DNA from: an uncultured Methylophilaceae bacterium
GTDB taxonomy: Bacteria > Pseudomonadota > Gammaproteobacteria > Burkholderiales > Methylophilaceae
Direction: 5' to 3'
Length of the DNA: 64,000 nt
NCBI GenBank assembly: GCA_964620425.1
Contig: CAZUGV010000008.1
Coordinates: forward strand, 3,628 to 67,627
The notes beneath the pieces were generated by a model that searched no databases, was not told the origin of the DNA, and worked only from the letters and a program-made list of their open reading frames with translations. Positions 790 to 33,691 of this stretch are shown piece by piece; positions within the stretch are counted from its first letter, which is position 1; every line of letters starts with the position of its first letter. The translations under genes and the position numbers were made by a program.

Positions 790-846
790 TGCATTTATCC
801 ATTCATTTGTTTTGATCAGGTGTTTGATTTTTATTGAACTGACTCA

Positions 847-6159: not shown

Positions 6160-6223
6160 GTTTATTGAGAAAAGTTGAATCAATTATGTTTCGTAAGATT
6201 CGTGTGTAAAAGTTAGGTTTGTC

Positions 6224-6670: not shown

Positions 6671-6758
6671 AAAGCGCAACGCACTGTGTAGCTAGGCTGT
6701 GATCAACTTGCCTGCTAAACATTAGCGCTTTAATGAGGTTTAATAGAGGAAACAGAAT

Positions 6759-8276: not shown

Positions 8277-8456
8277 CCCTGGCTATATCATCGTTTCTGC
8301 ATTTGGGGATGCTATCGCCCAGTGCTATCGCCAAGTGCAACGTTTTCTTAAGCTATTCGTTCACAATCATGCTGTAATTTTATATTTCACAAATATGAAA
8401 TGAAACATTCCGTGTAAAATCATGGTCAATGCAAGATTGGCAATGAAAGCAAAAGA

Positions 8457-9761
8457 ATGTTTGATTTAAACGAGTTTAAACAGCGCAGGTTGAGTCTTAT
8501 TCAGGGCATGGCAGAGGGCGTCGCCATTATTCCAACATCCACTGAGTGTATACGCAATCGCGATAGCCATTATCCTTTCCGATTTGATAGCTACTTTTAT
8601 TACCTCACTGGTTTTAAAGAACCTGAATCTTTGCTAGTGTTAATCGCTGGGGCTGAACCGAAATCCATTTTATTTTGCCGTAATAAAGACCTAGACCGCG
8701 AAATTTGGGATGGTTTTCGTTATGGGCCAGAAGCAGCGAAAGTTGAGTTTGGCTTTGATGAGGCCTATTCGATAGATGAATTAGATGAGGTGATCCCTAA
8801 GTTGATGGGCAACCAACCTAAGTTATATTTTAGTTTAGGTGCAGATGCTAAGTGGGATACAAATACCACAGCTTGGTTGAATCAAATACGTGAGCAGGCT
8901 CGATCTGGAGTTCGGGTTCCAGATGCGGTACTTGATGTGCGTCAACTGGTGGATGCGTTGCGTTTGCTAAAATCGCCCTATGAGTTAGATTTAATGCGCC
9001 GCTCGGCAACCATCGCGGCAGGTGCACATTTACGCGCCATGCAAAAAACCAAAGTCGGCAAGATGGAATATGAAATTGAGGCGGAATTTCTGCACGAATT
9101 TTATCGCAAAGGTGCGCAAGCCCCAGCTTACACCAGCATTGTCGCAGGTGGAGCTAATGCGTGTACCTTGCATTACAACGCAAATAACGCTGTGCTAAAG
9201 GATGGTGATTTGTTGTTGATTGATGCTGGTTGTGAGTTGGATGGGTATGCCTCTGATATTACGCGCACTTTCCCCATCAACGGAAAATTTAGTGCGCCAC
9301 AAAAAGATTTATACGAATTGGTGCTTGCATCGCAAGCGGCGGCAATCAGCAAAGTGAATCCACAAAACCATTGGAATGCCCCACACGAAGCGGCTTTAGA
9401 TGTCTTGGTAGATGGCTTTATTCACTACGGCTTATGCAAAGGTACACGCGAACAAGTGCTGGAAAATGGAAGCTATCGCCAGTTTTACATGCATCGCACA
9501 GGGCATTGGCTAGGGTTGGATGTGCATGATGCAGGTGAGTATAAAGACCAAGCTGGGCAATGGCGTATGCTGCAAGCGGGCAATGTATTAACTGTCGAGC
9601 CAGGTTGCTATGTGCGCCCTGCGGAGAATGTGCCAGAACACTTTTGGAATATTGGCATCCGTATTGAAGATGATGCTGTTGTCACGGAAAGTGGTTACGA
9701 AATTATCACCGCAGGAGCGCCGAAAACCGTGGTTGAAATTGAAAGCCTGATGGCGCAATGA
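8457..9761 (+). CDS. pepP: Xaa-Pro aminopeptidase (aminopeptidase P)
   Basis: 434 aa. M24 pita-bread motifs (DAGCELDGYASDITRTFP, HRTGHWLGLDVHD, GIRIEDD). Followed by ubiH as in the E. coli pepP-ubiH-visC operon. Confidence 0.9.
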   Translation: MFDLNEFKQRRLSLIQGMAEGVAIIPTSTECIRNRDSHYPFRFDSYFYYLTGFKEPESLLVLIAGAEPKSILFCRNKDLDREIWDGFRYGPEAAKVEFGFDEAYSIDELDEVIPKLMGNQPKLYFSLGADAKWDTNTTAWLNQIREQARSGVRVPDAVLDVRQLVDALRLLKSPYELDLMRRSATIAAGAHLRAMQKTKVGKMEYEIEAEFLHEFYRKGAQAPAYTSIVAGGANACTLHYNANNAVLKDGDLLLIDAGCELDGYASDITRTFPINGKFSAPQKDLYELVLASQAAAISKVNPQNHWNAPHEAALDVLVDGFIHYGLCKGTREQVLENGSYRQFYMHRTGHWLGLDVHDAGEYKDQAGQWRMLQAGNVLTVEPGCYVRPAENVPEHFWNIGIRIEDDAVVTESGYEIITAGAPKTVVEIESLMAQ

Positions 9762-10939
9762 ATGCAGATTTAATCAATCACCAAGGTAATGTCATTGTGG
9801 GTGGAGGGCCTGTGGGCGCGACACTTGCATTGGCATTGGCTCAAAAAGGCGTTGCGGCAACACTTTTGGAGGCGCGTGCCAAAGGCGTTGGCTACCCCGA
9901 TGGACGTGCGTTAGCTTTGTCTTACGGCACAAAAATGATTTTGGAGCGCTTAGGCGTGTGGGATGCTCTCGTGCCTAAAGTTACAGCTATCAACACCATT
10001 CACGTCTCGCAAAAGGGCAGCTTGGGTCGTTCTGTATTAAAAGCGCATGAGCATGATTTACCTTCGCTCGGCTATGTGGTTTCTTATGGTGTGTTAAGTG
10101 CTGCTTTGGATGAGGCTTTGCTGAAGCATGCTGAGATTGAAATTCTGTACCAAGCTGAGGTAACCTCAATTGAGCCACAGCTAGAATTTGCCCATATCCA
10201 TTACCAATCGCGAGGCAATACTTACAAGCTCCAAGCGCAACTTGCAGCATTGGCCGATGGCGGACGCAGCTTAAATGATATTGCGGGTTTAAAGCGCGAG
10301 GTGAAAGAATATGGCGATGATGCGCTGGTCGCCAAAGTAAAAACTGAGCTGGCGCATAACAATATTGCCTACGAGCGTTTTACTGCACAAGGTCCCATGG
10401 CTTTACTACCCAATGGTGAAGAATTTTCGTTGGTTTGGACAGGTAAATCCGCAGAAATTCAGCCGTTGTTGGCTTTGGATGATGCCACCTTTTTAGCGCA
10501 ACTTCATAGCCATTTTGGTGACCGTGTGGGCAAGTTTACCCATGTGGGCAAACGCATGACATTTCCACTCAAGTTGGCAACGCTGAGCGCTGCAACCGCA
10601 CCGCATCTTGCGGTGATTGGCAATGCCGCGCAAACGATGCATCCCGTGGCGGGGCAGGGCTTTAATGTAGGCTTGCGTGATGCCTTTGAATTGGGGCAAC
10701 AAATTGTGGCGACGCATCCAGCCGATTATGGCAGTGCGCAAATGCTCAAAGCCTATCAGCAAGGCAGACAAACCGATACCAAGCGTGGTTTGTTATTTAC
10801 CGATTTTTTAGTCAATGTGTTCTCGAATGATATTGTAGGTTTATCCACGTTGCGTGGGGTTGGCTTAGGCTTGTTTGACTTAGCTAAACCTCTGAAACGC
10901 AAACTCGTCAACAAAATGAGTTTTGGCAGCCATGGCTAA
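9758..10939 (+). CDS. ubiH: FAD-dependent ubiquinone biosynthesis hydroxylase (UbiH-like)
   Basis: 393 aa with an ATGA overlap with pepP. N-terminal GGGPVG dinucleotide fold and the motif GNAAQTMHPVAGQGFNVGLRD typical of the UbiH/UbiF/VisC/COQ6 family. Confidence 0.85.
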   Translation: MNADLINHQGNVIVGGGPVGATLALALAQKGVAATLLEARAKGVGYPDGRALALSYGTKMILERLGVWDALVPKVTAINTIHVSQKGSLGRSVLKAHEHDLPSLGYVVSYGVLSAALDEALLKHAEIEILYQAEVTSIEPQLEFAHIHYQSRGNTYKLQAQLAALADGGRSLNDIAGLKREVKEYGDDALVAKVKTELAHNNIAYERFTAQGPMALLPNGEEFSLVWTGKSAEIQPLLALDDATFLAQLHSHFGDRVGKFTHVGKRMTFPLKLATLSAATAPHLAVIGNAAQTMHPVAGQGFNVGLRDAFELGQQIVATHPADYGSAQMLKAYQQGRQTDTKRGLLFTDFLVNVFSNDIVGLSTLRGVGLGLFDLAKPLKRKLVNKMSFGSHG

Positions 10940-12098
10940 TTTAAGTTTTGATATTGTGATTGTAGGTGCAGGCTTAGTCGGTGCAGTGGCGGCGGTCGCA
11001 CTGGCCGAACAAGGATATTCCGTTGCCATCGTCGATAGAAAAGTCCCCGTTTTTAATGACAACCCAGCCGAATGGGATAGTCGCATCTACGCCATCAGCC
11101 CTGGTAATGTGGCGTGGTTGAAAAAATTAGAGGTTTGGCCGTTGGTCGATACCACACGCTTATGCGACATCGACCAAATGCAAGTGTGGGGTGACGATAC
11201 AGCGCAGCCGCTCATTTTTGATGCCTATGCAAGTAATGCCGCAAACTTGGGGGTGATTGTAGAAAGCCAACAAATTCACCAAGCGCTCTGGCAGCGATTG
11301 CAAGCCTTGGATGTGCATACGCAGTTTGGCATTGAGTGCGAAAAATTAGCGCAATTACCAGAAAAAGCTATTTTGCATTTAGCCGACGGAACCGAGTTGC
11401 ACGCCGAGTTGGTGATTGGGGCAGATAGCGGCAACTCATGGGTACGTGCGCAAGCGGGTATTGGCGTGCAAGTGCATCAATATGCGCAACAAGCGGTAGT
11501 CGCAAACTTTACCACTGCTTTGCCACACGGCAAGATCGCAAGGCAATGGTTTAGGGGTAACGACATCATGGCGTATTTGCCGATGGCGGAAAATCGTATG
11601 TCCATTGTTTGGTCAACGCCGCAAGCTGAGCAATTACTGAGTTTGCCAGAAGCTCAGTTTGTTGAAGCAGTAGCGCAAGCTGGTCAACATTGTTTGGGGG
11701 AATTAAGTTTATTAACACCCGCCGCAAAATTCACTTTAGTGAAACAAAGCGCTGTTAACATGGTGCAAGCTAGACTCGCTTTGATGGGCGATGCTGCACA
11801 CCGCATCCATCCGCTTGCAGGGCAGGGTGTAAATCTTGGCTTTCGAGATGTGATTGGGTTGGTTGAAGCATTAAGTCGGCGTAATCGCTATCAATCTGTG
11901 GGTGATGTTGCTCTTCTCCGCGCCTATGAACGTGCGAGAAAAGCTGACATGCTGAGTTTGGGCAGTTTAACGCATGGTTTGCAGTGGTTGTTTGAAAATG
12001 AGTTGCCCAGTATTAAAAAAATACGTAATGTAGGCATGGAGTTAACGAATCAGCAAGCGTGGCTAAAACGCTTATTGGTGAAACATGCCATTATCTAA
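10923..12098 (+). CDS. UbiH/UbiF/VisC(UbiI)/COQ6-family FAD-dependent hydroxylase, second paralog
   Basis: 391 aa. Motifs VGAGLVG and GDAAHRIHPLAGQGVNLGFRD. Its position corresponds to visC/ubiI in E. coli, but which hydroxylation step it performs cannot be read from the sequence. Confidence 0.8.
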   Translation: MAAMANLSFDIVIVGAGLVGAVAAVALAEQGYSVAIVDRKVPVFNDNPAEWDSRIYAISPGNVAWLKKLEVWPLVDTTRLCDIDQMQVWGDDTAQPLIFDAYASNAANLGVIVESQQIHQALWQRLQALDVHTQFGIECEKLAQLPEKAILHLADGTELHAELVIGADSGNSWVRAQAGIGVQVHQYAQQAVVANFTTALPHGKIARQWFRGNDIMAYLPMAENRMSIVWSTPQAEQLLSLPEAQFVEAVAQAGQHCLGELSLLTPAAKFTLVKQSAVNMVQARLALMGDAAHRIHPLAGQGVNLGFRDVIGLVEALSRRNRYQSVGDVALLRAYERARKADMLSLGSLTHGLQWLFENELPSIKKIRNVGMELTNQQAWLKRLLVKHAII

Positions 12099-21544: not shown

Positions 21545-21620
21545 TCCTCGATAGCTCAGTCGGTAGAGCGCCGGACTGTTAATCCGTAGGTCCCTGGTTC
21601 GAGCCCAGGTCGAGGAGCCA
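21545..21620 (+). tRNA. tRNA-Asn (anticodon GTT)
   Basis: The cloverleaf folds by hand. Acceptor tcctcga/tcgagga, D-arm gctc...gagc, anticodon loop ctGTTaa, T-arm cctgg-ttcgagc-ccagg, encoded CCA. Very close to E. coli tRNA-Asn. Confidence 0.95.
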
Positions 21621-21840: not shown

Positions 21841-21917
21841 GGTGATGTAGCTCAGCTGGTTAGAGCACAGGATTCATAATCCTGGGGTCGAGGGTTCAAG
21901 TCCCTCTTTCACCACCA
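21841..21917 (+). tRNA. tRNA-Met (anticodon CAT; elongator type; Ile2-lysidine type not excluded)
   Basis: ggtgatg-ta-gctc-agctggtta-gagc-a-cagga-ttCATaa-tcctg-gggtc-gaggg-ttcaagt-ccctc-tttcacc-a-cca. One U-U mismatch in the acceptor stem. The D-arm and variable region resemble elongator tRNA-Met. Confidence 0.9.
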
Positions 21918-22000: not shown

Positions 22001-23458
22001 ATGTTTGAGCAAACCTTTAAAAACATCGACGACATTCTGCATAAAGACGCAGGCGCAACCAGCGAGCTAGATTACACCGAGCAAACCTCTTGGATTTTGT
22101 TTTTAAAGTATCTGGATGCTTTAGAGCAAACCAAAGCGATGGAAGCCGAGCTAGAAGGTAAAGCCTACAGCTTTATTATTGACGACGCTTATCGCTGGCC
22201 GACATGGGCAGCACCTAAAACCGCTGATGGTAAGTTTGACCACAACAATGCTTTAACGGGTGATGACCTTAAAGATTTTGTGAATCTTAGACTTTTTCCC
22301 TACCTAAAAGGCTTTAAGCAACGCGCCACTAGCCCCAACACCATTGAATATAAAATCGGTGAAATTTTTGGCGAGATTAACAACAAAATTCAAAGTGGCT
22401 ATAACCTGCGTGAAGTGATTGAGCGCATTGATGAACTCAGCTTTAATACCCAAGCAGAAAAGCACGAGCTTTCACATCTGTACGAAGCCAAAATTAAAAA
22501 CATGGGCAACGCAGGCCGTAACGGCGGCGAATATTACACACCGCGCCCATTGATTCGCGCCATGATACAAGTGGTTAACCCAAAAATTGGTGAGACGATA
22601 TATGACGGCGCAGTTGGCAGTGCAGGCTTTTTATGCGAAGCGTTTGATTATTTGCGTAGTCAGCCTAATTTATCCACCAGTGATTTAAGCACCTTACAAA
22701 CCAGCACGTTTTACGGCAAAGAGAAAAAGAGCCTTGCCTACGTCATCGCCATCATGAACATGATTCTGCATGGCATAGAAGCGCCCAATATCATCCACAC
22801 CAACACGTTGGCGGAAAATATTAGCGATATTCAAGAAAAAGACCGCTTTGATATTATTCTCGCCAACCCACCGTTTGGCGGAAAAGAGCGTGCTGAGGTG
22901 CAACAAAACTTCCCCATCAAAACAGGCGAAACCGCCTTTTTGTTTTTACAGCACTTTATTAAAACCTTACGTGCTGGCGGCCGCGCTGCGGTCGTGATTA
23001 AAAACACCTTTTTAAGCAATACCGACAACGCCTCAGTCAGCCTGCGTAAACTGTTGCTAGAAAGTTGCAATCTGCACACCGTGCTCGATTGCCCAAGCGG
23101 CACGTTTCAAGGCGCAGGCGTAAAAACCGTGGTGCTGTTTTTTGAAAAAGGCGCGCCTACCCGCAACACTTGGTTTTATGTCCTAGACCCAGGCCGCAAT
23201 ATGGGCAAAACCAAACCGCTCAATGATAATGACTTGGCAGAATTTATAGCCCTACAAAAAACCTTTGCCGATTCCCCCAAAAGCTGGAGCGTTAACACAC
23301 AAGCCATCACCGAAGCCCAAGGCTACGATTTATCCGTGAAAAACCCCAACGGCAATGAAGAAGTCGCGCACCGCAGCCCGCAAGCGATTATGGAAGAAAT
23401 TGCCAAGCTGGATGCGGAAAGTGAGGAAGTGTTGGCAGGGATTAAGGCGTTGCTATGA
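22001..23458 (+). CDS. hsdM: type I restriction-modification system methyltransferase subunit HsdM (N6-adenine)
   Basis: MFEQTFKNIDDILHKDAG... is a typical HsdM N-terminus. SAM motif DGAVGSAGFL and catalytic motif LANPPFGGK. Confidence 0.95.
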   Translation: MFEQTFKNIDDILHKDAGATSELDYTEQTSWILFLKYLDALEQTKAMEAELEGKAYSFIIDDAYRWPTWAAPKTADGKFDHNNALTGDDLKDFVNLRLFPYLKGFKQRATSPNTIEYKIGEIFGEINNKIQSGYNLREVIERIDELSFNTQAEKHELSHLYEAKIKNMGNAGRNGGEYYTPRPLIRAMIQVVNPKIGETIYDGAVGSAGFLCEAFDYLRSQPNLSTSDLSTLQTSTFYGKEKKSLAYVIAIMNMILHGIEAPNIIHTNTLAENISDIQEKDRFDIILANPPFGGKERAEVQQNFPIKTGETAFLFLQHFIKTLRAGGRAAVVIKNTFLSNTDNASVSLRKLLLESCNLHTVLDCPSGTFQGAGVKTVVLFFEKGAPTRNTWFYVLDPGRNMGKTKPLNDNDLAEFIALQKTFADSPKSWSVNTQAITEAQGYDLSVKNPNGNEEVAHRSPQAIMEEIAKLDAESEEVLAGIKALL

Positions 23459-24657
23459 AGGCAGGGTGGCAGACTGAAAAACTAGGTGAAGTATGCTCAT
23501 TTCTGAATCGAGGTATTTCACCTAAATATATAGATACCAGCGGCATTTGCGTACTCAACCAAAAATGTATTCGCGACCATCGTGTTAGTTATGAACAAGC
23601 ACGTAGGCATGATTTTTCTGCAAAATCAGTTTCAGCAGAAAGATTGATTCAGCTTGGGGATGTACTGGTTAACTCGACTGGAACTGGAACACTTGGACGT
23701 GTGGCACAAGTGAGAGAAACCCCAAAAGAACCAACTACTGTTGATTCTCACGTTACCATTGTTCGCCCAAGAGAAGGTAAGTTCTACCAAGACTTCTTTG
23801 GTTATATGCTTATTTTAATTGAGGAAGCAATTAAAGAGGCTGGTGAAGGATGTGGTGGTCAAACAGAGCTTGCTCGTTCAGTTTTGGCAGAAAAGTTTTC
23901 AGTTAGTTATCCAACATCTATTGATCAACAACAACGCATCGTAGCCATACTCGACCAAGCGTTTGAGAGCATTGCCAAAGCGCGCGCAAATGCAGAACAA
24001 AACCGGCAAAATGCCCGCGCCTTGTTTGAAAGCCACCTACAATCGGTATTCACTCGGCGCGGTGATTGCTGGGTTGATAAAACCTTAGACCAAGTTTGCA
24101 TTGTTGAGAGAGGTAGTTCGCCAAGACCGATTAAAGACTTTTTTACTACAGAGCCTGATGGAGTCAACTGGATTAAAATTGGGGATACTGAAGAAGGCGG
24201 AAAGTACGTTTTTAAAACCGCTCAGAAAATTACACCTGAAGGCGCTAAACAATCGCGGTTTGTTAAAGAAGGAGATTTTATCCTAACAAACTCGATGTCT
24301 TATGGGCGACCTTACATCATGAAAACTAGCGGATGCATCCATGACGGATGGTTTGTTTTACGGTTGAATTTAGAAATCAACAGTGATTATTTTTATTATT
24401 TATTATCTTCTAGTTTTGTTCAATCGCAGTTCACTAGATTGGCAAGTGGTTCAGTGGTAAAAAACATCAGTGGTGATTTGGTTAAAATGGTAAATCTTCC
24501 TATCCCGCCAATTGAACAGCAAATTTCCATAGTTGATAAACTTTTGGGTCTGTCAAAAGAAACCCAACGCCTAGAAGCCCTCTACCAACGCAAAATCGCC
24601 TGCCTCGATGAACTGAAAAAATCCCTCTTGCAACAGGCTTTTGCTGGGGAGTTGTAG
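23455..24657 (+). CDS. hsdS: type I restriction-modification system specificity subunit HsdS
   Basis: 400 aa with an ATGA overlap with hsdM. Two target-recognition domains separated by a conserved helical spacer (QQQRIVAILDQAFESIAKARANAEQNRQNARALFESHL). A second conserved helix sits at the C-terminus (EQQISIVDKLLGLSKETQRLEALYQRKIACLDELKKSLLQQAF). Confidence 0.95.
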   Translation: MKAGWQTEKLGEVCSFLNRGISPKYIDTSGICVLNQKCIRDHRVSYEQARRHDFSAKSVSAERLIQLGDVLVNSTGTGTLGRVAQVRETPKEPTTVDSHVTIVRPREGKFYQDFFGYMLILIEEAIKEAGEGCGGQTELARSVLAEKFSVSYPTSIDQQQRIVAILDQAFESIAKARANAEQNRQNARALFESHLQSVFTRRGDCWVDKTLDQVCIVERGSSPRPIKDFFTTEPDGVNWIKIGDTEEGGKYVFKTAQKITPEGAKQSRFVKEGDFILTNSMSYGRPYIMKTSGCIHDGWFVLRLNLEINSDYFYYLLSSSFVQSQFTRLASGSVVKNISGDLVKMVNLPIPPIEQQISIVDKLLGLSKETQRLEALYQRKIACLDELKKSLLQQAFAGEL

Positions 24658-24666
24658 CCTCCATCC

Positions 24667-24698
24667 CCTTATATGCTATTTGCATATAGCATATAAGG
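24667..24698 (+). terminator. perfect 13-bp stem hairpin 10 nt after the hsdS stop (terminator/insulator candidate, no T tract)
   Basis: ccttatatgctat-ttgcat-atagcatataagg; the arms are exact reverse complements. Confidence 0.5.
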
Positions 24699-24703
24699 CG
24701 CAC

Positions 24704-24723
24704 ATTCTCTATTCGCGAATAGC
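24704..24723. promoter_or_regulatory. operator-like repeat 1 (contains the 14-bp perfect palindrome ctattcgcgaatag)
   Basis: attctctattcgcgaatagc is repeated with 19 of 20 identity at 24769-24788. Confidence 0.6.
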
Positions 24724-24768
24724 AATTATTTATAATAAGCTATTGTTATATTTATAAATTATGTTTAT

Positions 24769-24788
24769 ATTCTCTATTCGCGAACAGC
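24769..24788. promoter_or_regulatory. operator-like repeat 2, overlapping candidate -10/TSS of the wHTH-NTase operon
   Basis: attctctattcgcgaacagc (also tattcgc-gaaca-gcgaata). The AT-rich spacer between the repeats carries TATAAT (24731-24736) and TTGTTA-17 nt-TATATT (24743-24771). The AAGGA RBS and ATG 24807 follow. Confidence 0.6.
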
Positions 24789-24806
24789 GAATAAAAGGAA
24801 ATAAAC

Positions 24807-25352
24807 ATGGCTAGACCAATCACTAACCCACAAATTGCCTTAAAGCCACAAGATTTGGTGGTGTTGTTACGTCTGTCACTTTGCCAAGACGCTATGCCGA
24901 CTTATGCGCAATTGGCGGATGAGTTGGGGATTACTGCTTCTGAGATTCATGCTAGTTTAGGGCGTGCGCAACAGGCGCAATTGGTGTTTAAAGGTGAAGA
25001 TGGCAAGCCGCGTTTGGTACGCGAGGCTTTAAAACAGTTTGTGCTATATGGGGCGCGTTATGCTTTCCCTACTCTTCATGGTGAGTTGACACGCGGCTTG
25101 CCTACTTTGTATGCCGCCTCGCCAATTAAAGAGAAAATAATCGCAACCACCGATTTACCGCCTGTGTGGCCTGATAAAAACGGCAAAGTACGCGGTATGG
25201 CGCTTTATCCGCTTTACCCTAGCGTACCCGATGCCGCAAACCGTAACCCTGACTTGTATGAGTTGCTGGTGTTGTTTGATGCTTTGCGCGCGGGTAGCGC
25301 ACGTGAGCGCAATTTGGCGCAAGAGATGTTGAGTGAACGGTTGAGCGCATGA
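24807..25352 (+). CDS. winged-HTH protein, AbiEi-like antitoxin/regulator candidate
   Basis: 181 aa. HTH-like PTYAQLADELGITASEIHASLGRAQQAQLV near the N-terminus. C-terminal part ends NPDLYELLVLFDALRAGSARERNLAQEML. 4-nt ATGA overlap with the next gene. Confidence 0.6.
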   Translation: MARPITNPQIALKPQDLVVLLRLSLCQDAMPTYAQLADELGITASEIHASLGRAQQAQLVFKGEDGKPRLVREALKQFVLYGARYAFPTLHGELTRGLPTLYAASPIKEKIIATTDLPPVWPDKNGKVRGMALYPLYPSVPDAANRNPDLYELLVLFDALRAGSARERNLAQEMLSERLSA

Positions 25353-26059
25353 GTATAAACGCCAATGACCCCAATGTGATGTTGCTAGAAGTAGTTGCCC
25401 AGCATTTGGGCGCGGAGCTACTTGAGCGCATGGTGTTTGTGGGTGGCGCGGTGGCGGGCTTATTGATTACCGACCCTGCGATGCCTAGCATACGCCCAAC
25501 AGAGGATGTGGATTTAGTGGTGCAAGCGACGGTGTTGCGCGAGTACCATGCTGCAGAGGCCGCTTTGAAGGCGCAAGGGTTTGTGCAGGATATGTCAGCC
25601 GATGCGCCCATTTGCCGTTGGCGTATTGGCTTGCTCACAGTCGATGTGATGCCGATGGAAAAAACAGTGCTAGGCTTTGCTAACCGCTGGTATCCCTTAG
25701 CCGTGGCGACGGCGCAACCTTTTGCTCTGCCGAGTGGCAAAGTTATTAAGCTGATTATTGCACCCGTATTTGTAGCAACAAAATTGGAAGCTTTTGCAGA
25801 CCGTGGCAAGGGCGACTTTTTGTTTAGCCATGATTTAGGCGATATTATTGCCATTGTGGATGGGCGCGACAGTTTGCTGGATGAGTGCAACCAAGCAACC
25901 CCTGAGCTAAAGGCGTATTTACAATTAAAATTTGCTGAGTTGATGAATAACCCATCGTTTAGACAAGCATTGTCTGGGCATTTATCACCCGATGCCGCAA
26001 GCCAAAGCCGTTTGCCTTTGCTTGAGCGAAAACTAAACGAACTGGCTAAAACACTTTAG
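25349..26059 (+). CDS. pol-beta-fold nucleotidyltransferase, AbiEii/DUF1814-like toxin candidate
   Basis: 236 aa. Motif I FVGGAVAGLL, motif II RPTEDVDLVV, third acidic position TVDVMP, and motif III-like KLEAFADRGKGDFLFSHDLGDIIAIV. Confidence 0.6.
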   Translation: MSINANDPNVMLLEVVAQHLGAELLERMVFVGGAVAGLLITDPAMPSIRPTEDVDLVVQATVLREYHAAEAALKAQGFVQDMSADAPICRWRIGLLTVDVMPMEKTVLGFANRWYPLAVATAQPFALPSGKVIKLIIAPVFVATKLEAFADRGKGDFLFSHDLGDIIAIVDGRDSLLDECNQATPELKAYLQLKFAELMNNPSFRQALSGHLSPDAASQSRLPLLERKLNELAKTL

Positions 26060-26061
26060 AC

Positions 26062-26084
26062 AGTGACAAGCTTGTCACTTTTTT
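26062..26084 (+). terminator. rho-independent terminator after the nucleotidyltransferase gene
   Basis: agtgacaag/cttgtcact palindromic stem followed by T6, starting 3 nt after the stop codon. Confidence 0.8.
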
Positions 26085-26134
26085 ATTATCTCGCCGCCAT
26101 CAACACACCCTAAAAGTCGGCAAATTATGCTGGA

Positions 26135-26158
26135 GCTTGCGTTTACTGTTACGCAAGC
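26135..26158. promoter_or_regulatory. 8-bp-arm palindrome upstream of the HipA-like gene (operator candidate)
   Basis: gcttgcgt-ttactgtt-acgcaagc, ending 45 nt upstream of ATG 26203. The track's TTG 26137 start lies inside it. Confidence 0.4.
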
Positions 26159-26202
26159 ACATAATATCTATTCATTTAACTATTCAATTTGTATTCACTT
26201 TT

Positions 26203-27546
26203 ATGTCAGCGCATCTTGATGCTCTTCGTTTGTTACTGGCAGCGGGCCCTCAATCAGCGTTGCAACTGATTGAAAATATAGGGATTAGCCAGCCTACCTT
26301 ATCGCGTGCGCTTAGTCGCCTTGGCGATGAGGTGGTGCGTCTGGGGGCGGCGAGATCTATTCAATATACCTTGCGAGACACAGCGCGCGGCATCTCTGAT
26401 ATTCCTGTTTATCGGGTGACTACCGAGGGACAAATACGCAATTTGGGTACCTTAGTGCCAGTACGCCCGCAGGGTTTTGTGATGCGGCAGTTGGATGGTG
26501 CAACCTTGCACAGTGACGGTTTGCCATGGTGGTTATTTGATATGCGTCCTCTGGGGTTTCTTGGTCGGGCTTATGCCGCACACCATGCCGCAGCACTAGG
26601 GCTGCCAGCAAAACTGAACGAGTGGCGCGATGAGCATGCCCTGCGCGCACTACTGGCGCATGGCCATGATGTGGTGGGCAACTTGCTGCTAGGCGATTTG
26701 GCGCGTGACCGCTTTCTTTCTGCGCCACTACCTAACCCTGTTGCCCAGCAGGATAAAGCTGAGGTTTATCGTCAACTTGCTTTGGATGCAGCGAGTGGTG
26801 AGGTGGCGGGTTCTTCAGCGGGTGGTGAGCAGCCAAAATTTACGGTGTTTGCAGACACGTCCGCTGGAGCGCGTCATTTGTTGGTGAAATTTAGCGAGTC
26901 AGAGGATAACTCGGTGAGTGAGCGTTGGCGCGATTTATTGTTGGCTGAGCACTTGGCACTGGAAACTTTGCGTGGCGCGAATATTTCTGCTGCACAGACC
27001 TATGTATTTGACCATGGCGGACAGCGATTTCTTGAAGTGGAGCGATTTGACCGTGTGGGCAGTTTAGGGCGACGCGCATTGCACTCATTGACTGCACTGG
27101 ATGCCGAGTTTGTGGGGTCAGGTAATGGAAACTGGCCGCAGATTTCAAGTCGCCTTGCAGAATCAGGTCAGATTGAACCTCAGGCAGTGGAGCTTGCTGC
27201 ATTGCTATGGGCGTTTGGTACGCTAATAGGCAATACGGATATGCACAACGGTAATTTATCTTTTATTGCTGAGCATGGAAGACCTTACGCCATTGCACCC
27301 GCGTATGACATGACCACCATGGGGTTTGCACCACGTAGCGGCGGAGGTTTGCCAGATAGCGTTGCCCAAGCAAGCATAATTGCCGATGTTCCAAACCATA
27401 TTTGGCAACGCGCAGGGGTGTTGGCGGGCGAGTTTCTAATTCGCGTTCGTAACTCAGATGCCTTTAGCCAGCGCTTTGCTGTATGTATTGCAGCGCTTGC
27501 AAACCGACTCGATATGGCGCGAGCAGCGATTGCCAGATTGGGTTAG
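26203..27546 (+). CDS. single-chain HTH + HipA-family Ser/Thr kinase (YjjJ/HipH-like toxin candidate)
   Basis: 447 aa from ATG 26203. N-terminal HTH (GPQSALQLIENIGISQPTLSRALSRLG). HipA kinase motifs: SSAGGEQPKFTV (P-loop equivalent), ERFDR, NTDMHNGNLSF (catalytic D-x-H-x-x-N) and APAYDM (Mg-binding Asp). Confidence 0.8.
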   Translation: MSAHLDALRLLLAAGPQSALQLIENIGISQPTLSRALSRLGDEVVRLGAARSIQYTLRDTARGISDIPVYRVTTEGQIRNLGTLVPVRPQGFVMRQLDGATLHSDGLPWWLFDMRPLGFLGRAYAAHHAAALGLPAKLNEWRDEHALRALLAHGHDVVGNLLLGDLARDRFLSAPLPNPVAQQDKAEVYRQLALDAASGEVAGSSAGGEQPKFTVFADTSAGARHLLVKFSESEDNSVSERWRDLLLAEHLALETLRGANISAAQTYVFDHGGQRFLEVERFDRVGSLGRRALHSLTALDAEFVGSGNGNWPQISSRLAESGQIEPQAVELAALLWAFGTLIGNTDMHNGNLSFIAEHGRPYAIAPAYDMTTMGFAPRSGGGLPDSVAQASIIADVPNHIWQRAGVLAGEFLIRVRNSDAFSQRFAVCIAALANRLDMARAAIARLG

Positions 27547-27590
27547 CACAGAAATGCTAAAGCGGATAATTTAAGGTATATTACAGAGCT

Positions 27591-29927
27591 ATGAACGAAG
27601 CCGAAACACGCGCAGAACATATAGACCCAGCCCTGAAGGCCGCTGGTTGGGGCGTGGTAGCTGGCAGTTATATCAAGCGCGAGTACATCACACTTGGGCG
27701 TTTGCAGGGCGGCGGCAAGCGTAGCAAACAAGAAATTGCCGATTATGTGTTGGTGTATAAAAACCATAAATTGGCGGTGATTGAGGCAAAGGCTTGGGAT
27801 AAACCTTACACCGAGGGTGTGGCGCAGGCTAAGACTTACGCGCAAAAGCTGAATAGCCGTTTTGCTTATGCAACCAATGGGCAACGGATTTATGGCATTG
27901 ATATGCACACGGGTAAAGAGGCGGATGTTGCTAAATACCCCAGCCCAGACGAATTATGGAGTTTAACCTTTGCGGAGCAAAATGCATGGCGCGATAAGTT
28001 TGCTGAGATTCCGTTTGAAGATAAAGGCGGTTATTTTGGTGCGCGTTATTATCAGCACAATGCGATTGAGGCAGTGCTTGAGGCAATAGCGAATAACCAA
28101 GCGCGCATATTGCTCACCCTAGCGACTGGCACAGGCAAAACCTTTATTGCCTTTCAGTTAGCTTGGAAGTTGTTTTATAGCCGCTGGAATTTAAGCCGTG
28201 AACTCAATGGTGATAAACCACGCCGACCGCGTATTTTGTTTTTAGCTGACCGCAATGGTTTGGCAGACCAAGCGTATAACGCGTTTTCTGCTTTCCCTGA
28301 AGATGCCTTGGTACGCATTGCGCCTGATGAAATTAGCAAAAAAGGCCGCGTACCCAAGAACGGCAATATCTTTTTTACGATTTTCCAAACCTTTATGAGC
28401 GGCACGGATGCTGAAGGAAACCCTGCGCCTAACTTTGGTGAATATCCACCCGACTTTTTTGATTTTATTATCATCGACGAATGCCACCGTGGCGGTGCGA
28501 ATGATGAGGGTAATTGGCGCGGAATTTTGGAGTATTTCTCGCCCGCGGTTCAGTTAGGCTTAACCGCTACGCCTAAGCGTAAAGACAATGTAGATACTTA
28601 TGCGTACTTTGGTGAGCCTGTGTATGTGTACTCACTTAAAGAAGGCATTAACGATGGCTTTTTAACGCCATTTAAAGTGAAGCAAATTGCAACCACGATG
28701 GATGAATATATCTATACGCCAGGGGATGGCGTGGTGGTACAAGGTGAGGCTGAACCTGGCAGACTTTATAAAGAAAGCGATTTTAATCGGATTATTAAAA
28801 TCCCCGCGCGTGAGCAATACCGAGTGAAATTGTTTATGGAGTTAATCAATCAGCGTGAAAAAACCTTGGTGTTTTGCGCATCGCAAGACCACGCGTTAGA
28901 AGTACGCGACTACATTAATCAGATTAAAACGAGCAAAGACCCAGACTACTGCGTGCGGGTTACAGCAGCAGATGGCGCACGTGGCGATGAATATCTGAGA
29001 GCGTTTCAAGACAATGAAAATGCGATCCCCACCATTTTGACCACATCACAAAAGCTTTCAACTGGTGTAGATGCACGTAACGTGCGCAATATTGTGCTGA
29101 TGCGTGAAGTGAATAGCATGATTGAGTTTAAGCAGATTATTGGGCGTGGTACTCGACTATACGATGGCAAAGACTACTTTACGATTTATGATTTTGTAAA
29201 AGCACATCATCACTTTTCCGACCCTGAGTGGGATGGCGAGCCTGAGCCGCCTGAGTCAACAGCACCAAATGCACATGTGACCAAACCAAATACGGTTGAG
29301 CAACCTCAACAACCTTATACTCCTGAGCCTAAACCTGAGAAAATTTTGATTAAACTGTCTGATGGAAAAACTCGTCAGATTCAACATATGATGGCGACTA
29401 GTTTTTGGGGCGCAGATGGTAAGCCTATGTCGAGTGCTCAGTTTTTAGAAAGCTTATTTGGTGTTTTACCTGAGTTCTTTAGAGATGAAGATACATTGCG
29501 TGAAATTTGGAGCGCCCCCGAAACGCGCAAAAAGCTGTTGGATGGCTTGAGCGAAAAAGGCTTTAATAAAGAAGTATTGGCCGAAATGCAACGCATTATT
29601 GATGCAGAAAATAGTGATCTGTTTGATGTGTTAGCGCACGTAGCTTTTGCGTTGCAACCACTTACGCGCAGCAATCGTGCTGCCATCGCAAAAAATGAAA
29701 TTCACCAACACTTTGCTGATAAACAATCCGCTTTTATTGATTTTGTTTTAGGGCAATATATTAAGCAAGGTGTGGATGAGTTAAGCCAAGAAAAACTAAA
29801 GGATTTGATAGGTCTGAAATACCAATCTATTCACGATGCTACTTCAGAGTTAGGTAACACCACAGAAATTAGGCAACTATTTGTTAGATTTCAAAAATAC
29901 TTATATCAACAAAGTGATGTCATTTAA
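27591..29927 (+). CDS. hsdR: type I restriction enzyme endonuclease/translocase subunit HsdR
   Basis: 778 aa. N-terminal PD-(D/E)xK nuclease (DYVLVYKNHKLAVIEAKAWDK). SF2 helicase motifs LATGTGKT, IIIDECHRG, LTATP and QIIGRGTR. Confidence 0.95.
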   Translation: MNEAETRAEHIDPALKAAGWGVVAGSYIKREYITLGRLQGGGKRSKQEIADYVLVYKNHKLAVIEAKAWDKPYTEGVAQAKTYAQKLNSRFAYATNGQRIYGIDMHTGKEADVAKYPSPDELWSLTFAEQNAWRDKFAEIPFEDKGGYFGARYYQHNAIEAVLEAIANNQARILLTLATGTGKTFIAFQLAWKLFYSRWNLSRELNGDKPRRPRILFLADRNGLADQAYNAFSAFPEDALVRIAPDEISKKGRVPKNGNIFFTIFQTFMSGTDAEGNPAPNFGEYPPDFFDFIIIDECHRGGANDEGNWRGILEYFSPAVQLGLTATPKRKDNVDTYAYFGEPVYVYSLKEGINDGFLTPFKVKQIATTMDEYIYTPGDGVVVQGEAEPGRLYKESDFNRIIKIPAREQYRVKLFMELINQREKTLVFCASQDHALEVRDYINQIKTSKDPDYCVRVTAADGARGDEYLRAFQDNENAIPTILTTSQKLSTGVDARNVRNIVLMREVNSMIEFKQIIGRGTRLYDGKDYFTIYDFVKAHHHFSDPEWDGEPEPPESTAPNAHVTKPNTVEQPQQPYTPEPKPEKILIKLSDGKTRQIQHMMATSFWGADGKPMSSAQFLESLFGVLPEFFRDEDTLREIWSAPETRKKLLDGLSEKGFNKEVLAEMQRIIDAENSDLFDVLAHVAFALQPLTRSNRAAIAKNEIHQHFADKQSAFIDFVLGQYIKQGVDELSQEKLKDLIGLKYQSIHDATSELGNTTEIRQLFVRFQKYLYQQSDVI

Positions 29928-29970: not shown

Positions 29971-30171
29971 TTAGTGGGTGTCATCGTAAATTGAATTGAA
30001 GTCACTATCACTAAATGCAAAATCAGAAAAACTCTCATCTAAATCTGCGTCATCGTCACTATCTTCAATCGCTTTAGCGTAGCGACTTTTTTTTGCGCCA
30101 ATCGCTTCTTGTTCAACTATTTCGTCAATATAGAGATCCTTGTTAGCGTTTGTAGTTTTTGATGTATCCAT
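29971..30171 (-). CDS. small highly acidic hypothetical protein
   Basis: 66 aa with 19 Asp/Glu against 6 Lys/Arg. The C-terminal half is EDSDDDADLDESFSDFAFSDSDFNSIYDD. Good SD (AAGAGG) 7 nt upstream of the ATG. Convergent with hsdR. Confidence 0.55.
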   Translation of the reverse strand: MDTSKTTNANKDLYIDEIVEQEAIGAKKSRYAKAIEDSDDDADLDESFSDFAFSDSDFNSIYDDTH

Positions 30172-30474: not shown

Positions 30475-31653
30475 TCAAGCGGCTTGCGCGCCCCAAATCT
30501 GCTCTGCGGTAAACGGAATGTCGTTTACTTCTAACGCCACGCCTTCTTTAATAGCAAAAGCCTCTGCTTCAGTTTTTCTAAGCTCTGGAGAAGGCAAGAC
30601 ATCTCCATTGGCGTTTTTAATGACCATTACATCAGGGGTGGTAGTAGAGCCTCCCTTAGCCATGACAACCGCTGTTTCCCCGCTAGCTAGTTTCACACAA
30701 CAGCCAGGAGGATACATACCCAACTCTTGGATGAAAAACGTAGTAATTTTGGCATCAAAAATTTTATCGTTATCAACTAACAGACTGCCTAATGCTTGGG
30801 CTGGGTGTATGCCTTTACGCACTTTTCTAGGCGCTATCATGGCGGTATAGCGATCCGCCAGCGCAATAATCTTGGCACCAAGCGGAATGCTATTTCCCGA
30901 GATGCCTGCTGGGTATCCGCTGCCATCCAGCTGTTCGTGATGGTTAAGCACATAGGACAGCCAGGCCAGATTGGTGACCCCCGCCTCTTTTAACAATGCC
31001 ACAGATAATTGAGGATGCTTGCGAATCAATGCACGCTCTTCCTCAGTAGGCGGCGTAGCGCGATTTTGTAAATCTTCCTGCAAAAACAACATGCCGATAT
31101 TCATGGTGAGCGCGGCGGCGGTAATGGCTTCTACTTCGGTCTCAGACATTTGCATGGCTTTTGCCACAATCAGGCTCAAAACCGCGGTATCAATCAAGTG
31201 TCTATTTGCATAGCCTTCTGGTGTTTGCTTGAAATGAATGTTGGCAATTGCAATGTCAGGGTTGGTAGAGACCGATTCATTCAGCACCCGCACCACTTGC
31301 ATCACCATTTCAGGGACTTGGGGCAATGGCGCATTGGCAACTACCCCTAGGTTAACGTTTTGAATGATGGTGAGTGCGTTGCCCAGTTTGCTTAATACCT
31401 GATGCCCTACAGCCGTACTTGTATTTTTGGTGGCATGCCCTCGTGCGCTTGCGCCCTGTGCACTGGATTGTCTGTATTCTGCCTCATTCACAAACAGCCC
31501 TCGCTCAATCAAGGTTTCCAGTTGCTTTTCTGATTGTGGAATAAAGCCTACACGCGCAAGTAATCGACCATTCGCATCATAGACATTCCATAGTATAGGG
31601 CTGCCTATTTCTAGGTCTTTTAGAGATATTTTATGGAAATCTGATTCGGTCAT
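30475..31653 (-). CDS. HD-GYP-family protein with degenerate HD dyad (MN-GYP)
   Basis: 392 aa. HHEQLDGSGYP and the downstream ALADRYTAM are intact, but the position aligned to LHDIGK reads TMNIGM (M184 N185, nt 31099-31104). Confidence 0.85.
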   Translation of the reverse strand: MTESDFHKISLKDLEIGSPILWNVYDANGRLLARVGFIPQSEKQLETLIERGLFVNEAEYRQSSAQGASARGHATKNTSTAVGHQVLSKLGNALTIIQNVNLGVVANAPLPQVPEMVMQVVRVLNESVSTNPDIAIANIHFKQTPEGYANRHLIDTAVLSLIVAKAMQMSETEVEAITAAALTMNIGMLFLQEDLQNRATPPTEEERALIRKHPQLSVALLKEAGVTNLAWLSYVLNHHEQLDGSGYPAGISGNSIPLGAKIIALADRYTAMIAPRKVRKGIHPAQALGSLLVDNDKIFDAKITTFFIQELGMYPPGCCVKLASGETAVVMAKGGSTTTPDVMVIKNANGDVLPSPELRKTEAEAFAIKEGVALEVNDIPFTAEQIWGAQAA

Positions 31654-31683
31654 TTATGCTTCTTTTACTGTAGAAACAGCTAA

Positions 31684-33691
31684 TTAGTTTTGATTAAAGC
31701 TAAGTGCAAACTGTTTAGCCTCGTTTGCAGGCAATGCTTTAGAAAAGTACCAGCCTTGCACAAACTGAACGCCCGCTTGCTTGACAATATTCAGCTGCGC
31801 TTCTGTTTCCACCCCTTCAGAAACCACAACAAAACCTAAATCAGCACACATTTTGCTACTGTGCATGTATATTTTACAACCACTATCAGATTTCGCCATA
31901 TCGATTAACTGCTTGTCAAATTTAATGGTTTTTGCCGTTGTAATATGCAAGTGTTCCAGACTTGAATATCCTGTACCAAAGTCATCAATCACCAGCTGGA
32001 ACCCATTATTTCGTAGCAACTGTATATTTTTATCTGCTTTTTCACGGAGTAAAAATGCGCGCTCAATCACCTCAAATTGCACATCAAAACCTGACAAGAT
32101 TTCTACAACCGTATTCATCGCCTTTTCATCCAAAATAGTATCAGGGTGAAGATTGATGCTAATAAATGGGGAATATCCCTCGTTATGCCACGCCTCTAGG
32201 TTTAAGCGCACTTGCTTGCACACCCATAGGTCAATCACGGTTGAAAGCCCCGCGCGTTCTAATGTTGGAATAAAGTAAGGGCCAACAATTTTTCCATCCT
32301 GCATTTTGAGCCGCAGAAGTGCTTCAAAGCTGTTACATTGTTGATTTTCAATATCAATAATCGGCTGATAGAACATGATAAGCTCATTATTCACAATCAA
32401 ATCAATGATGCGATGCGTATCCAAATGGGCATTCACCAAAAAAGTTTGCGCCTCTTGAAACTTGAGCCCCTGCTTTGTTTGTATGCTTTCGGATAAGTGT
32501 AGCTTTTCTTTAAGTAACTCTAAATGTGCAGTAGTACTTTGCGTATTGACGTAGGTACGAACAAATAACACGTAAATACCTATATCTACACTCAATAATA
32601 AGGCTTGAAACAGAACAGCTGTCCAATCTCCATTCGTCGCCAGATAGCCACTGACAAAGATAGGCGTTGTCCATGGAAGCTCTGTGGCCGAGAACGTAAA
32701 AAATCCAGCATGCACAACGAACAAGGCAACAGCCAGATTCATTAAGGGCACCAGTATAAATGGAACCAATATTTTTCGGTTTAATACGATGGGCAAGCCA
32801 TACAGCAAAATTTCTGTCACATTAAACACCAAGAAAGGGAGTGCAATTTTTGAGACTCGAATGGCGTGACCATCTTTTGCAACAATTAAAATCGCAATAG
32901 CAAGCGACAAGCTCGCACCAACACCGCCAAAAATCACAAAAGTATCTATTAGGTTTTTAGCCGTGAGATTCGGCATAATCAGCTGGCTGAGTTGGCTAGT
33001 ACCAAAGATTAAATCAAAAATATTGGTGCCATGCACACCAACAAATGTGAGTAAATGAGAACAAACTGTTCTAAACGCAATCATCTGCTCAGGGTGGTTA
33101 GCAAACTGCAGAGTGGTCAAGCTAGCCATGCTAGTTACCTGATTAAAAGTAATATGGATAAACTCAAACACAATCAAGCTTGTCGCGTAGCTAAGAATAA
33201 AAGCTGGCGTATGACGATAAATCATGCGAACACTACCAGCTAATTGGATTGTTTGTGGATAGAGCATCCATTTGCAATTTAAAAATTTGGCAAATATTAA
33301 GGGTAGAAACAACAGGAATTAAAATTGAGAAAACAGAAAAACTGCTAGAACTGAATGCAGCATTGATTAAAGTTATTTTGAATGGGAATATGGTAATTAG
33401 CAGTGCCACTGACAGCGTAATAGCACCAGCACTGTCAATATTTTTCAGTTTCGATAGCTGAAAAGAAATCGCTATCAACAAGAACACTGGTAGCGCATCT
33501 TGCATCAACTTTGCGCCCAAGTGCAGTGTTGTTAAGTGACGGGAGCTTCCCCAAAGGGGTAATACTTGCAACAATAATGTTGCGATTGATGAAAGTACGA
33601 GAAATGGGATTAGCGAAACAAACGCCTCTCTAAGCGCGTATATAATGAGCTCAAGTTGATTGCGCAACTTCGCCACGAGCTGCCATCTCAT
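31684..33691 (-). pseudogene. polytopic membrane (PTS EIIC-like) / EAL-domain c-di-GMP phosphodiesterase gene, reading frame interrupted
   Basis: Two overlapping ORFs in different frames, 33691->33233 (152 aa, membrane) and 33312->31684 (542 aa). The second contains further TM helices with a GVHG motif and a complete EAL domain: EALLRL, SINLH, DDFGTGYSSL, KFDK, SEGVETEAQ, QGWYF. The overlap contains a T3A5T3 run (33278-33288). Confidence 0.55.

Follow-up and report, generated by a model that had tools for sequence, protein, structure and literature searches.

Toxin-like gene modules in the hsdS–hsdR gap of an EcoAI-family type I restriction–modification operon from an uncultured Methylophilaceae bacterium

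Type I restriction–modification (R-M) operons are known to host embedded genes. In the prr locus of Escherichia coli, which specifies EcoprrI, the gene order is hsdM-hsdS-prrC-hsdR, and PrrC occurs almost solely as an embedded gene of type I R-M operons (bioRxiv 10.1101/2024.01.29.577857). RloC, Fic, BrxU/GmrSD and others are embedded type I cargo of a like kind. We describe here a locus with genes in the same slot, located in a stretch of 64,000 nucleotides (hereafter the window) of contig CAZUGV010000008.1, positions 3,628 to 67,627, from an uncultured Methylophilaceae bacterium (assembly GCA_964620425.1). Profile searches identified an intact type I R-M operon of the EcoAI family (type IB), hsdM-hsdS...hsdR, and the three genes lying between hsdS and hsdR fall into two modules: a pair (genes 1 and 2) matching the catalogued candidate PDC-M21, and a single gene (gene 3) for the HipA-type kinase HipH (YjjJ). 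We consider it likely that these are autonomous, self-regulated and horizontally acquired toxin modules rather than effectors kept silent by the Hsd proteins.

A type I operon with defence or toxin–antitoxin (TA) genes as its embedded cargo, as found here, is an established pattern, to which PrrC, RloC and the outcome of a 'guilt-by-embedding' screen belong. This screen, by Payne, Hughes, Fineran and Jackson, looked for genes that repeatedly turn up within BREX, DISARM and type I R-M operons and yielded 145 PDCs (phage-defence candidates), which still have candidate status (bioRxiv 10.1101/2024.01.29.577857). The entry for PDC-M21 is cassette CAS_00093, which has 166 occurrences and is made up of three families, FAM_01665>>FAM_00091>>FAM_01402 (bioRxiv 10.1101/2024.01.29.577857). 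It has no published function or fold assignment, and a literature search for 'PDC-M21' by name found no paper. An initial annotation of the window, made from the sequence alone, had been unable to assign the inserted genes to any described defence system; genes 1 and 2 do match the PADLOC profiles PDC-M21A (3.2e-42, residues 35–179) and PDC-M21B (1.1e-67, residues 6–232), respectively, and the pair was already catalogued for the very context which that annotation had found striking.

For toxins related to gene 2, antitoxin-induced auto-phosphorylation has precedents in MenA/MenT and AbiEi/AbiEii (PMC11375011; bioRxiv 10.64898/2026.01.19.700257). HipH is described as a monocistronic toxin whose control is not established in the literature (PMC8262856); the E. 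coli protein has been reported as a kinase with RpmE and CsrA as targets (PMC9948734) and as a DNase antagonised by cyclic di-GMP (c-di-GMP) (PMC11452175).

The two modules and their genes

The gap between hsdS and hsdR measures 2.9 kb and holds three genes on the same strand as the hsd genes. This layout, together with the 4-nt overlap of hsdM and hsdS, had been read correctly in the initial annotation, whose gene coordinates and motifs were confirmed by the open reading frame (ORF) map and the translations. In blastn comparisons with sibling operons the boundaries of the insert fall exactly at 24657/24658 and 27590/27591, with an inner breakpoint at 26135, which bears out the earlier view of a modular insert. 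What does not hold is the description as a three-gene cassette: HipH is present in 0 out of 80 genomic loci containing a gene 2 homologue, and sibling operons with HipH only do exist. Module 1 (24658–26134, plus strand) is a discrete indel made up of the PDC-M21-type pair with its own control region and terminator; homology to one HipH-only sibling (L087) stops at 24657 and restarts at 26135. Module 2 (26135–27590, plus strand), also a discrete indel, consists of a monocistronic hipH with its own promoter and operator. It is absent from three other siblings (L067, L056 and L073), in which homology restarts exactly at the hsdR start, 27591. Judged from these alignments, the insert is a composite of two modules, each of which appears to have come and gone independently of the other and of the hsd genes.

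Gene 2 (25349–26059, plus strand), or PDC-M21B, codes for a putative toxin of 236 amino acids and overlaps gene 1 by 4 nt. Its translation displays the motifs FVGGAVAG, TEDVDLVV, VDVMP and KLEAF...SHDLGDI. The earlier proposal of a pol-beta/AbiEii-type nucleotidyltransferase proved right at the level of the superfamily, on the basis of profile comparison, a Foldseek match to MenT1 and the invariance of the motifs. The family is large, with 2,644 homologues and 4,300 clusters at 50% identity. When 105 diverse representatives at 37–60% identity were scanned with PF08843 (AbiEii/DUF1814; E ≤ 0.01), 50 matched, the best at 1.4e-9. The family profile finds MenT1 (8an4, deposited as 'AbiEii/AbiGii toxin family') at 2e-6. 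MenT1 is also the top Foldseek match in the PDB (8an5_B, E = 8.7e-7, TM-scores 0.51/0.64) for the AlphaFold2 model of gene 2 (pLDDT 92), the next match being ANT(2'')-Ia. Residues T51, D53, D55, D99, K145 and D165 are invariant across the 105 family sequences, and G32 and G33 nearly so. In the profile alignment T51, D53, D55 and K145 face T39, D41, D43 and K137 of MenT1, which are the phospho-acceptor and catalytic residues of that toxin (PMC11375011); the invariant T51, in RPTEDVD, corresponds to the threonine of RFT(39)RDVD, placed in both directly before the DxD motif. Homologues of gene 2 on plasmids carry the RefSeq label 'AbiEii/AbiGii toxin family'. Because of the PF08843 matches of its relatives, the profile match to MenT1, the modelled fold and the invariant catalytic residues, gene 2 is best described, from its sequence and model, as a divergent nucleotidyltransferase of the MenT/AbiEii superfamily with its active-site residues intact.

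Gene 1 (24807–25352, plus strand), or PDC-M21A, codes for a protein of 181 amino acids, a putative autorepressor and antitoxin. Its N-terminal ~85 residues form a winged helix-turn-helix (wHTH) domain, which is followed by an uncharacterised C-terminal domain. Pfam gave weak wHTH signals alone (MarR_2 and similar), with nothing above threshold in Pfam or NCBIfam. The wHTH-like N-terminus reported earlier is well founded, since the Foldseek PDB matches of the AlphaFold2 model (pLDDT 84) cover a wHTH of ~70 residues; they are confined to it, and residues ~87–181 of the model returned no PDB match in Foldseek. A search of the PDB with the gene 1 family profile found nothing relevant. The identification of gene 1 as the AbiE-type partner had to be dropped: no AbiEi Pfam family was detected in gene 1 or in its 42 relatives, and the AbiEi structure 6y8q was not among the Foldseek matches.

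In the 149 nt that precede gene 1 there is a 32-nt palindrome, along with two copies of ATTCTCTATTCGCGAA(T/C)AGC, starting at 24704 and 24769. These copies correspond to two putative operator boxes, ATTCTCTATTCGCGAATAGCAATT (box 1, 24704–24727) and ATTCTCTATTCGCGAACAGCGAAT (box 2, 24769–24792), with 3 and 2 mismatches, respectively, to a 24-bp palindromic family consensus, ATTCGCTATTCGCGAATAGCGAAT. A sigma-70-like promoter candidate for genes 1 and 2, TTGTTA-17-TATATT (24743–24771, plus strand), comes from a consensus scan, in itself weak evidence; box 2 overlaps its -10 region and ends 14 nt before the ATG of gene 1. The consensus was searched for (≤4 mismatches, within 200 nt upstream of gene 1) in 72 loci from Betaproteobacteria, Gammaproteobacteria and cyanobacteria, with unrelated flanking DNA, and was present in 60, most homologous loci having the box at the same position relative to the gene 1 start codon. 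There were 2 matches in the remaining 1.01 Mb of those loci, taken as background. Such a distribution amid unrelated flanking DNA provides strong evidence, on the sequence side, that the palindrome is a conserved operator, most simply for the wHTH of gene 1.

The 32-nt palindrome was located by repeat search at 24667–24698 (16+16 nt, CCTTATATGCTATTTG/CATATAGCATATAAGG, 94% complementary) and is 80–84% conserved in L085, L067 and L056 (blastn). Its sequence is related to the operator in degenerate form and is similar to the palindromes of a second subfamily of gene 1–gene 2 pairs (L028 and the second copy of L016). Two loci, L016 (12309–13699) and L059 (1–1060), carry two such pairs each. The second pair of L016 is preceded by a different palindrome, GTATGCTATATGCATACAGCATAC; because this one is similar to the palindrome at 24667–24698 of the window, we suggest that operator subtypes diverge along with gene 1.

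Module 1 ends in an intrinsic-terminator-like hairpin, AGTGACAAG/CTTGTCACT followed by TTTTTT (26062–26085, plus strand; -8.1 kcal/mol, z = -2.4). An Rfam scan detected no RNA family within the insert.

Gene 3 (26203–27546, plus strand) encodes HipH, an HTH plus HipA-type Ser/Thr kinase of the toxin class, of 447 amino acids. A TTG at 26137 was rejected as its start in favour of the ATG at 26203, because the resulting 447 residues equal the length of essentially all homologues among the matches listed. The earlier assignment to HTH-HipA kinases with intact motifs can now be narrowed to the YjjJ/HipH equivalog (NCBIfam NF007297, full length, 4.7e-172, 572.7 bits, cut-off 401). HipA_C is matched at 2e-23 and HTH_5 and HTH_24 at residues 5–42, and the translation contains GSSAGGEQPKF, GNTDMHNGN and APAYDM. 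The Gly-rich loop, the catalytic loop (D346/H348/N351) and the Mg site (D369) are all invariant in the HipH alignment. No antitoxin gene adjoins hipH, and it stands alone between hsdS and hsdR in L087–L090.

A candidate hipH promoter was read from the sequence (plus strand; -35 TTGCGT at 26137–26142, a 17-nt spacer and -10 CATAAT at 26160–26165). Its -35 element sits inside a palindrome, GCTTGCGT...ACGCAAGC, which was rejected as a conserved HipH operator as it is confined to close relatives. What is conserved instead is a set of three direct repeats, CTATTCA, CTATTCA and GTATTCA, spaced by 11–12 nt, between the -10 element and the ATG (26168–26197, plus strand). ATCTATTCA occurs upstream of hipH in 50 out of 80 loci (55–87% protein identity), L134 (see below) included, and in distant HipH loci, too, a TATAAT-like box immediately precedes the repeats. 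The triple repeat is a putative operator for the N-terminal HTH of HipH. In the 44-nt gap between hipH and hsdR (27547–27590) a terminator scan revealed no convincing terminator or terminator-like site. The initial annotation had credited each unit with palindromes and a terminator of its own; this is correct for the gene 1–gene 2 unit and fails for gene 3, which has no convincing terminator before hsdR. Since module 1 ends in a terminator and none follows hipH, hsdR probably shares a transcript with hipH, from the hipH promoter.

Sibling operons and genomic contexts

Sibling operons have different cargo in the same slot. The order is hsdM-hsdS-HipH-hsdR in L087–L090 and hsdM-hsdS-Peptidase_M78-DUF4411-gene 1-gene 2-HipH-hsdR in L085 and L086; gene 1 and gene 2 are followed directly by hsdR, without HipH, in L067 and L073, and by a SoFic-like Fic gene and then hsdR in L056. 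HsdM and HsdR of the siblings are 83–96% identical to those of the window and HipH 86–87%, whereas the gene 1/gene 2 pairs are 46%/55% identical, which argues that the slot was filled or replaced independently. The GC content of the cargo is 0.50–0.53, as against 0.42–0.44 for hsdS, hsdR and the window. It appears that the hsdS–hsdR gap of this EcoAI-family operon is a variable cargo slot and that the modules were acquired horizontally. What is new is that this slot acts as a natural swap site in one family of Methylophilaceae operons, with five cargo states next to nearly constant hsd genes; the five-state series is a ready comparative system. In L087 (6011–6245) the place of the gene 1–gene 2 cassette is taken by a spacer bounded by inverted repeats, GTCATTCCCGCG...CGCGGGAATGAC, which has the look of a miniature inverted-repeat transposable element or of a repetitive extragenic palindrome (MITE/REP type). 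The pair of Peptidase_M78 (ImmA/IrrE-like) and DUF4411 genes sharing the slot in L085 (4416–6033) is likely another cargo of toxin/antitoxin type.

Gene neighbourhoods were compared in the 80 genomic loci with a gene 2 homologue, and embedding was counted in the 35 of them flanked by ≥3 kb at either end. Wherever the DNA before gene 2 is available, gene 1 is its immediate upstream neighbour in essentially every one of the 80 loci. Around the pair, hsdR, hsdM and hsdS alone recur; neither clustering of the neighbours all against all nor PADLOC profiles run on 140 neighbour ORFs revealed a third conserved partner in the 80 loci. The pair is located between hsd genes in 10 out of 35 fully flanked loci (29%), in three gene orders (S-x-R, R-S-x-M and M-x-S) and in several hsd families. 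In 23 out of 35 it does not adjoin hsd genes, and the surroundings of non-embedded pairs are a mixture of housekeeping and defence genes. Gene 2 homologues are present on 116 plasmids; a search of phages for such homologues found none. In the Aquabacterium olei plasmid pTB101 (L173, 4651–9058), a remnant consists of the pair, with an hsdM-like methyltransferase gene before it and an IS3 transposase gene after it, beside an integron integrase; its gene 2 homologue bears the RefSeq name 'AbiEii/AbiGii toxin family protein'. In L043 (Limnohabitans planktonicus, 1–12000), hsdR-hsdS is followed by a defence island with the order DUF4357, Schlafen/AlbA_2 ATPase, HipA_2-family kinase plus DUF3037, gene 1-gene 2 and DEDDh exonuclease, a second instance, independent of the window, in which the nucleotidyltransferase pair adjoins a Hip-like kinase. 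It is conceivable, if improbable, that the neighbouring Ser/Thr kinase (HipH in the window, HipA_2 in L043) cross-regulates the MenT-like toxin, whose off-switch would be phosphorylation of the threonine before DxD.

For HipH the picture is different. Enrichment next to hsd genes, which the initial annotation had led us to look for, was strong for the gene 1–gene 2 pair, but among 80 metagenomic loci with HipH at 55–83% identity only 2 have it embedded in an hsd operon (~3%; L093 and L134), and in ~95% of HipH loci no hsd gene adjoins it. L134 represents an unrelated type I family, with HsdM and HsdR ~24% identical to those of the window and an hsdR with HSDR_N and SWI2_SNF2. On this count HipH reached the position directly before hsdR at least twice, in unrelated hsd families. 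The region from hsdS to HipH in L134 (2980–5420) holds a gene with a TIR_2 domain, two HTH_3 genes on the opposite strand and further, unassigned ORFs. About 30 E. coli plasmids (~90–100 kb) carry a yjjJ/HipH homologue as cargo, 53% identical to that of the window; the one example inspected, pEC258-2 (L172, NZ_CP097097.1, 3687–4991), has phage-type genes (holin, lysis protein, lysozyme and single-stranded DNA-binding protein).

The host operon starts with hsdM (22001–23458, plus strand), the type I methyltransferase subunit (Pfam N6_Mtase, 3e-61, and HsdM_N; PADLOC MTase_I, 2e-163). Its ORF opens with a GTG at 21944, and the ATG at 22001 is the likelier start because the resulting 485 residues equal the length of the homologues. 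The specificity gene hsdS (23455–24657, plus strand; Pfam Methylase_S in 2 stretches, PADLOC Specificity_I, 4.5e-80) encodes two target-recognition domains, and its alignment with siblings (blastn) is restricted to the conserved central and C-terminal regions, since these domains are expected to be variable. The restriction subunit gene hsdR (27591–29927, plus strand; 778 amino acids) matches Pfam ResIII and EcoEI_R_C and the NCBIfam equivalog NF046051 (EcoAI/FtnUII family; 8.2e-248, 824.7 bits, cut-off 550). Membership of type IB is based on this match together with the presence of intact hsdM and hsdS. Just upstream of hsdM are genes for tRNA-Asn (21545–21620) and tRNA-Met (21841–21917), both on the plus strand and detected by ARAGORN and Rfam. 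The tRNA-Met–hsdM junction is kept in L087 and L067 (blastn) while the outer flanks differ, for which reason the entire hsd operon may travel as a tRNA-linked islet. The exact window locus recurs in several metagenome runs.

Directly downstream of hsdR an ORF of 66 codons on the minus strand (29971–30171) specifies a product whose C-terminal half is rich in D and E and very acidic. It is called as a gene in identical metagenome contigs and is not kept after hsdR in sibling operons; the charge of its product recalls, by analogy, DNA-mimic anti-restriction proteins. Further on (30475–33312, minus strand) are an HD-GYP-type (HD_5) gene and a PTS_EIIC+EAL gene, both c-di-GMP phosphodiesterase-like. 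The reported antagonism of E. coli HipH by c-di-GMP (PMC11452175) draws attention to them, but their proximity to HipH is probably a coincidence, because they are not conserved next to HipH in L087 or L085.

Role of the modules and competing explanations

If the two modules are autonomous, as we think likely, module 1 would be a MenAT/AbiE-like TA or abortive-infection pair. Gene 2 would stop translation by adding nucleotides to the 3' ends of tRNAs. Gene 1 would repress its operon at the 24-bp palindromic operators and neutralise gene 2, possibly by inducing auto-phosphorylation of Thr51 beside the catalytic DxD; this mode is plausible because the threonine before DxD is invariant. The antitoxin role is suggested by gene order and overlap, as gene 1 has no detectable relation to MenA or AbiEi antitoxins. 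HipH would be a growth-arresting Ser/Thr kinase, autoregulated through its own N-terminal HTH at the three CTATTCA repeats. The presence of the modules would reflect the tendency of defence and TA genes to embed in multi-gene defence operons, and most likely they would act as independent second-line (abortive-infection) or stabilising elements. A role in abortive-infection defence is plausible by analogy, because the co-embedded cargo is of the defence type (Fic, TIR, Schlafen/AlbA_2, YhcG and DUF4411) and because AbiE of Lactococcus lactis and the DUF1814 system SanaTA protect against phage.

A number of observations weigh on the other side. PDC-M21 is one of 145 experimentally unsupported candidates. 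The Pfam searches suggested by the initial annotation recovered HipA_C in gene 3 and neither AbiEi nor AbiEii in genes 1 and 2 themselves; the gene 2 protein of the window had no Pfam match at E ≤ 0.1 and no NCBIfam match, and the similarity of its modelled structure to MenT1 is moderate (TM-scores of 0.5–0.64). AbiE from Streptococcus agalactiae gave no protection against 32 coliphages. HipH of E. coli has no known defence role, and its reported activities conflict (PMC9948734 versus PMC11452175). Finally, to find HipH immediately before hsdR in two type I families that are not related exceeds what chance alone would lead one to expect, and a functional link is conceivable.

The modules could instead be purely selfish or physiological cargo, i.e. 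TA addiction elements or growth regulators in a permissive 'genomic sink', with no anti-phage role. Pairs of gene 1 and gene 2 that are not embedded have housekeeping genes around them as frequently as defence genes, gene 2 homologues were found on plasmids and on no phage, and on the chromosomes of E. coli K-12 and Methylophilus medardicus hipH stands by itself. Two PDCs that were tested showed no defence in their native host, in line with the S. agalactiae result, and HipAB is reported to stabilise a genomic island (PMC8978831). However, the sibling and analogous slots are dominated by defence-associated families (Fic/SoFic, TIR, Schlafen/AlbA_2, YhcG, DUF4411 and MNT), several PDC and HEC candidates of the same screen were validated, and the L. 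lactis AbiE and SanaTA precedents point the same way. We regard this explanation as unlikely.

An unlikely explanation, too, is the one offered by the initial annotation, a guard in the manner of PrrC: one or both toxins would be held latent by association with HsdMSR and fired when a phage anti-restriction protein of the Ocr/Stp type disables the enzyme. Slot and strand are those of prrC, the frequency at which the gene 1–gene 2 pair is embedded in hsd operons is ~100 times that of a random gene, and the authors of the PDC catalogue raise the possibility for embedded systems in general (bioRxiv 10.1101/2024.01.29.577857). HipH lies 29–60 nt upstream of hsdR in both unrelated type I families and is probably co-transcribed with it, given a terminator before and none after; this repeated, terminator-less adjacency is the single observation that keeps the guard alive. 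The idea is weakened by several others. Both modules have a regulator or antitoxin of their own and conserved operators, whereas PrrC has none and depends on EcoprrI. Most homologues are outside hsd operons (23/35 for gene 1–gene 2 and ~95% for HipH). The gene 1–gene 2 pair has no constant Hsd partner, as it occurs in three arrangements and several hsd families; near-identical hsd operons do without either module; and neither toxin is homologous to PrrC, RloC or an ABC-ATPase.

A narrower proposal concerns HipH only. Two type I families that are not related have hipH fixed directly before hsdR with no terminator in between, and HipH might on that ground be functionally tied to HsdR: expressed together with the restriction subunit, it would act as a guard or regulator and sense when that subunit is lost or inhibited, as a kinase counterpart of PrrC. 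We find this quite improbable; if true, the orphan toxin HipH would gain a long-sought trigger. Very improbable, finally, is a control of hsdR by HipH, whose HTH would set hsdR transcription in the manner of a C protein and/or whose kinase would modify HsdR to tune restriction: the short gap of 29–60 nt without terminator, an upstream terminator that makes the hipH promoter the nearest one for hsdR, and an adjacency that arose in two hsd families are outweighed by sibling operons that express hsdR without HipH (L067 and L073), by the distance of most HipH genes from any hsd gene and by a promoter-like site just before hsdR (27543–27570), and we know of no precedent for kinase control of type I enzymes.

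These results do not overturn current views. What they add is, firstly, that PDC-M21B is a divergent MenT/AbiEii-type nucleotidyltransferase that has kept the Thr phospho-switch residue and has a wHTH partner with an apparently new C-terminal domain; secondly, sharply conserved operator motifs for both the gene 1–gene 2 pair and HipH, which are handles for binding and reporter work; and thirdly, the recruitment of HipH next to hsdR at least twice, a hint of a defence-related role.

Relation to described systems

The prr locus resembles the window in the slot and strand of a toxin-type payload within a type I operon. It differs in that none of the three window proteins matches PrrC, RloC or an ABC-ATPase (PADLOC, Pfam and NCBIfam), in that each window module brings a regulator of its own and has most of its homologues outside hsd operons, and in that the near-exclusive type I association of PrrC is seen neither for the gene 1–gene 2 pair (10/35) nor for HipH (2/80).

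Gene 3 is an equivalog-level match to HipH/YjjJ of E. coli K-12, of Hip kinase clade X (Gerdes et al. 2021; Gratani et al. 2022). Common to both are the N-terminal HTH extension of ~100 residues, the Gly-rich loop with two serines, the catalytic and Mg-binding motifs and a monocistronic gene with no antitoxin gene adjoining. The window protein is, however, ~53% identical to the enterobacterial proteins, and its gene, like those of a small clade and of L134, sits between hsdS and hsdR, probably co-transcribed with the latter, a context not described in the HipH literature examined. HipH has no PADLOC v2 model, and the PADLOC scan returned spurious partial matches only.

MenAT1/MenAT3 of Mycobacterium tuberculosis and AbiE share with the window pair the antitoxin-then-toxin order of a bicistron with overlapping genes, the four nucleotidyltransferase/DUF1814 motifs of the toxin and the phospho-acceptor threonine before DxD. 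Gene 2 finds its best match, by structure as well as by profile, in MenT1. As in AbiEi autoregulation, the upstream partner has an N-terminal wHTH and the promoter has palindromic repeats. Differences are that gene 2 falls below Pfam PF08843 and that gene 1 displays no similarity to AbiEi/COG5340 or MenA1 beyond the wHTH, its C-terminal domain having no PDB match.

As to PDC-M21, the source table gives three families, whereas the window has two components and the 80 loci have no conserved third gene. In other respects the likeness is close: the A and B profiles cover genes 1 and 2 almost from end to end, the two genes are same-strand neighbours, and they are embedded in a type I R-M operon, the context that defines the candidate.

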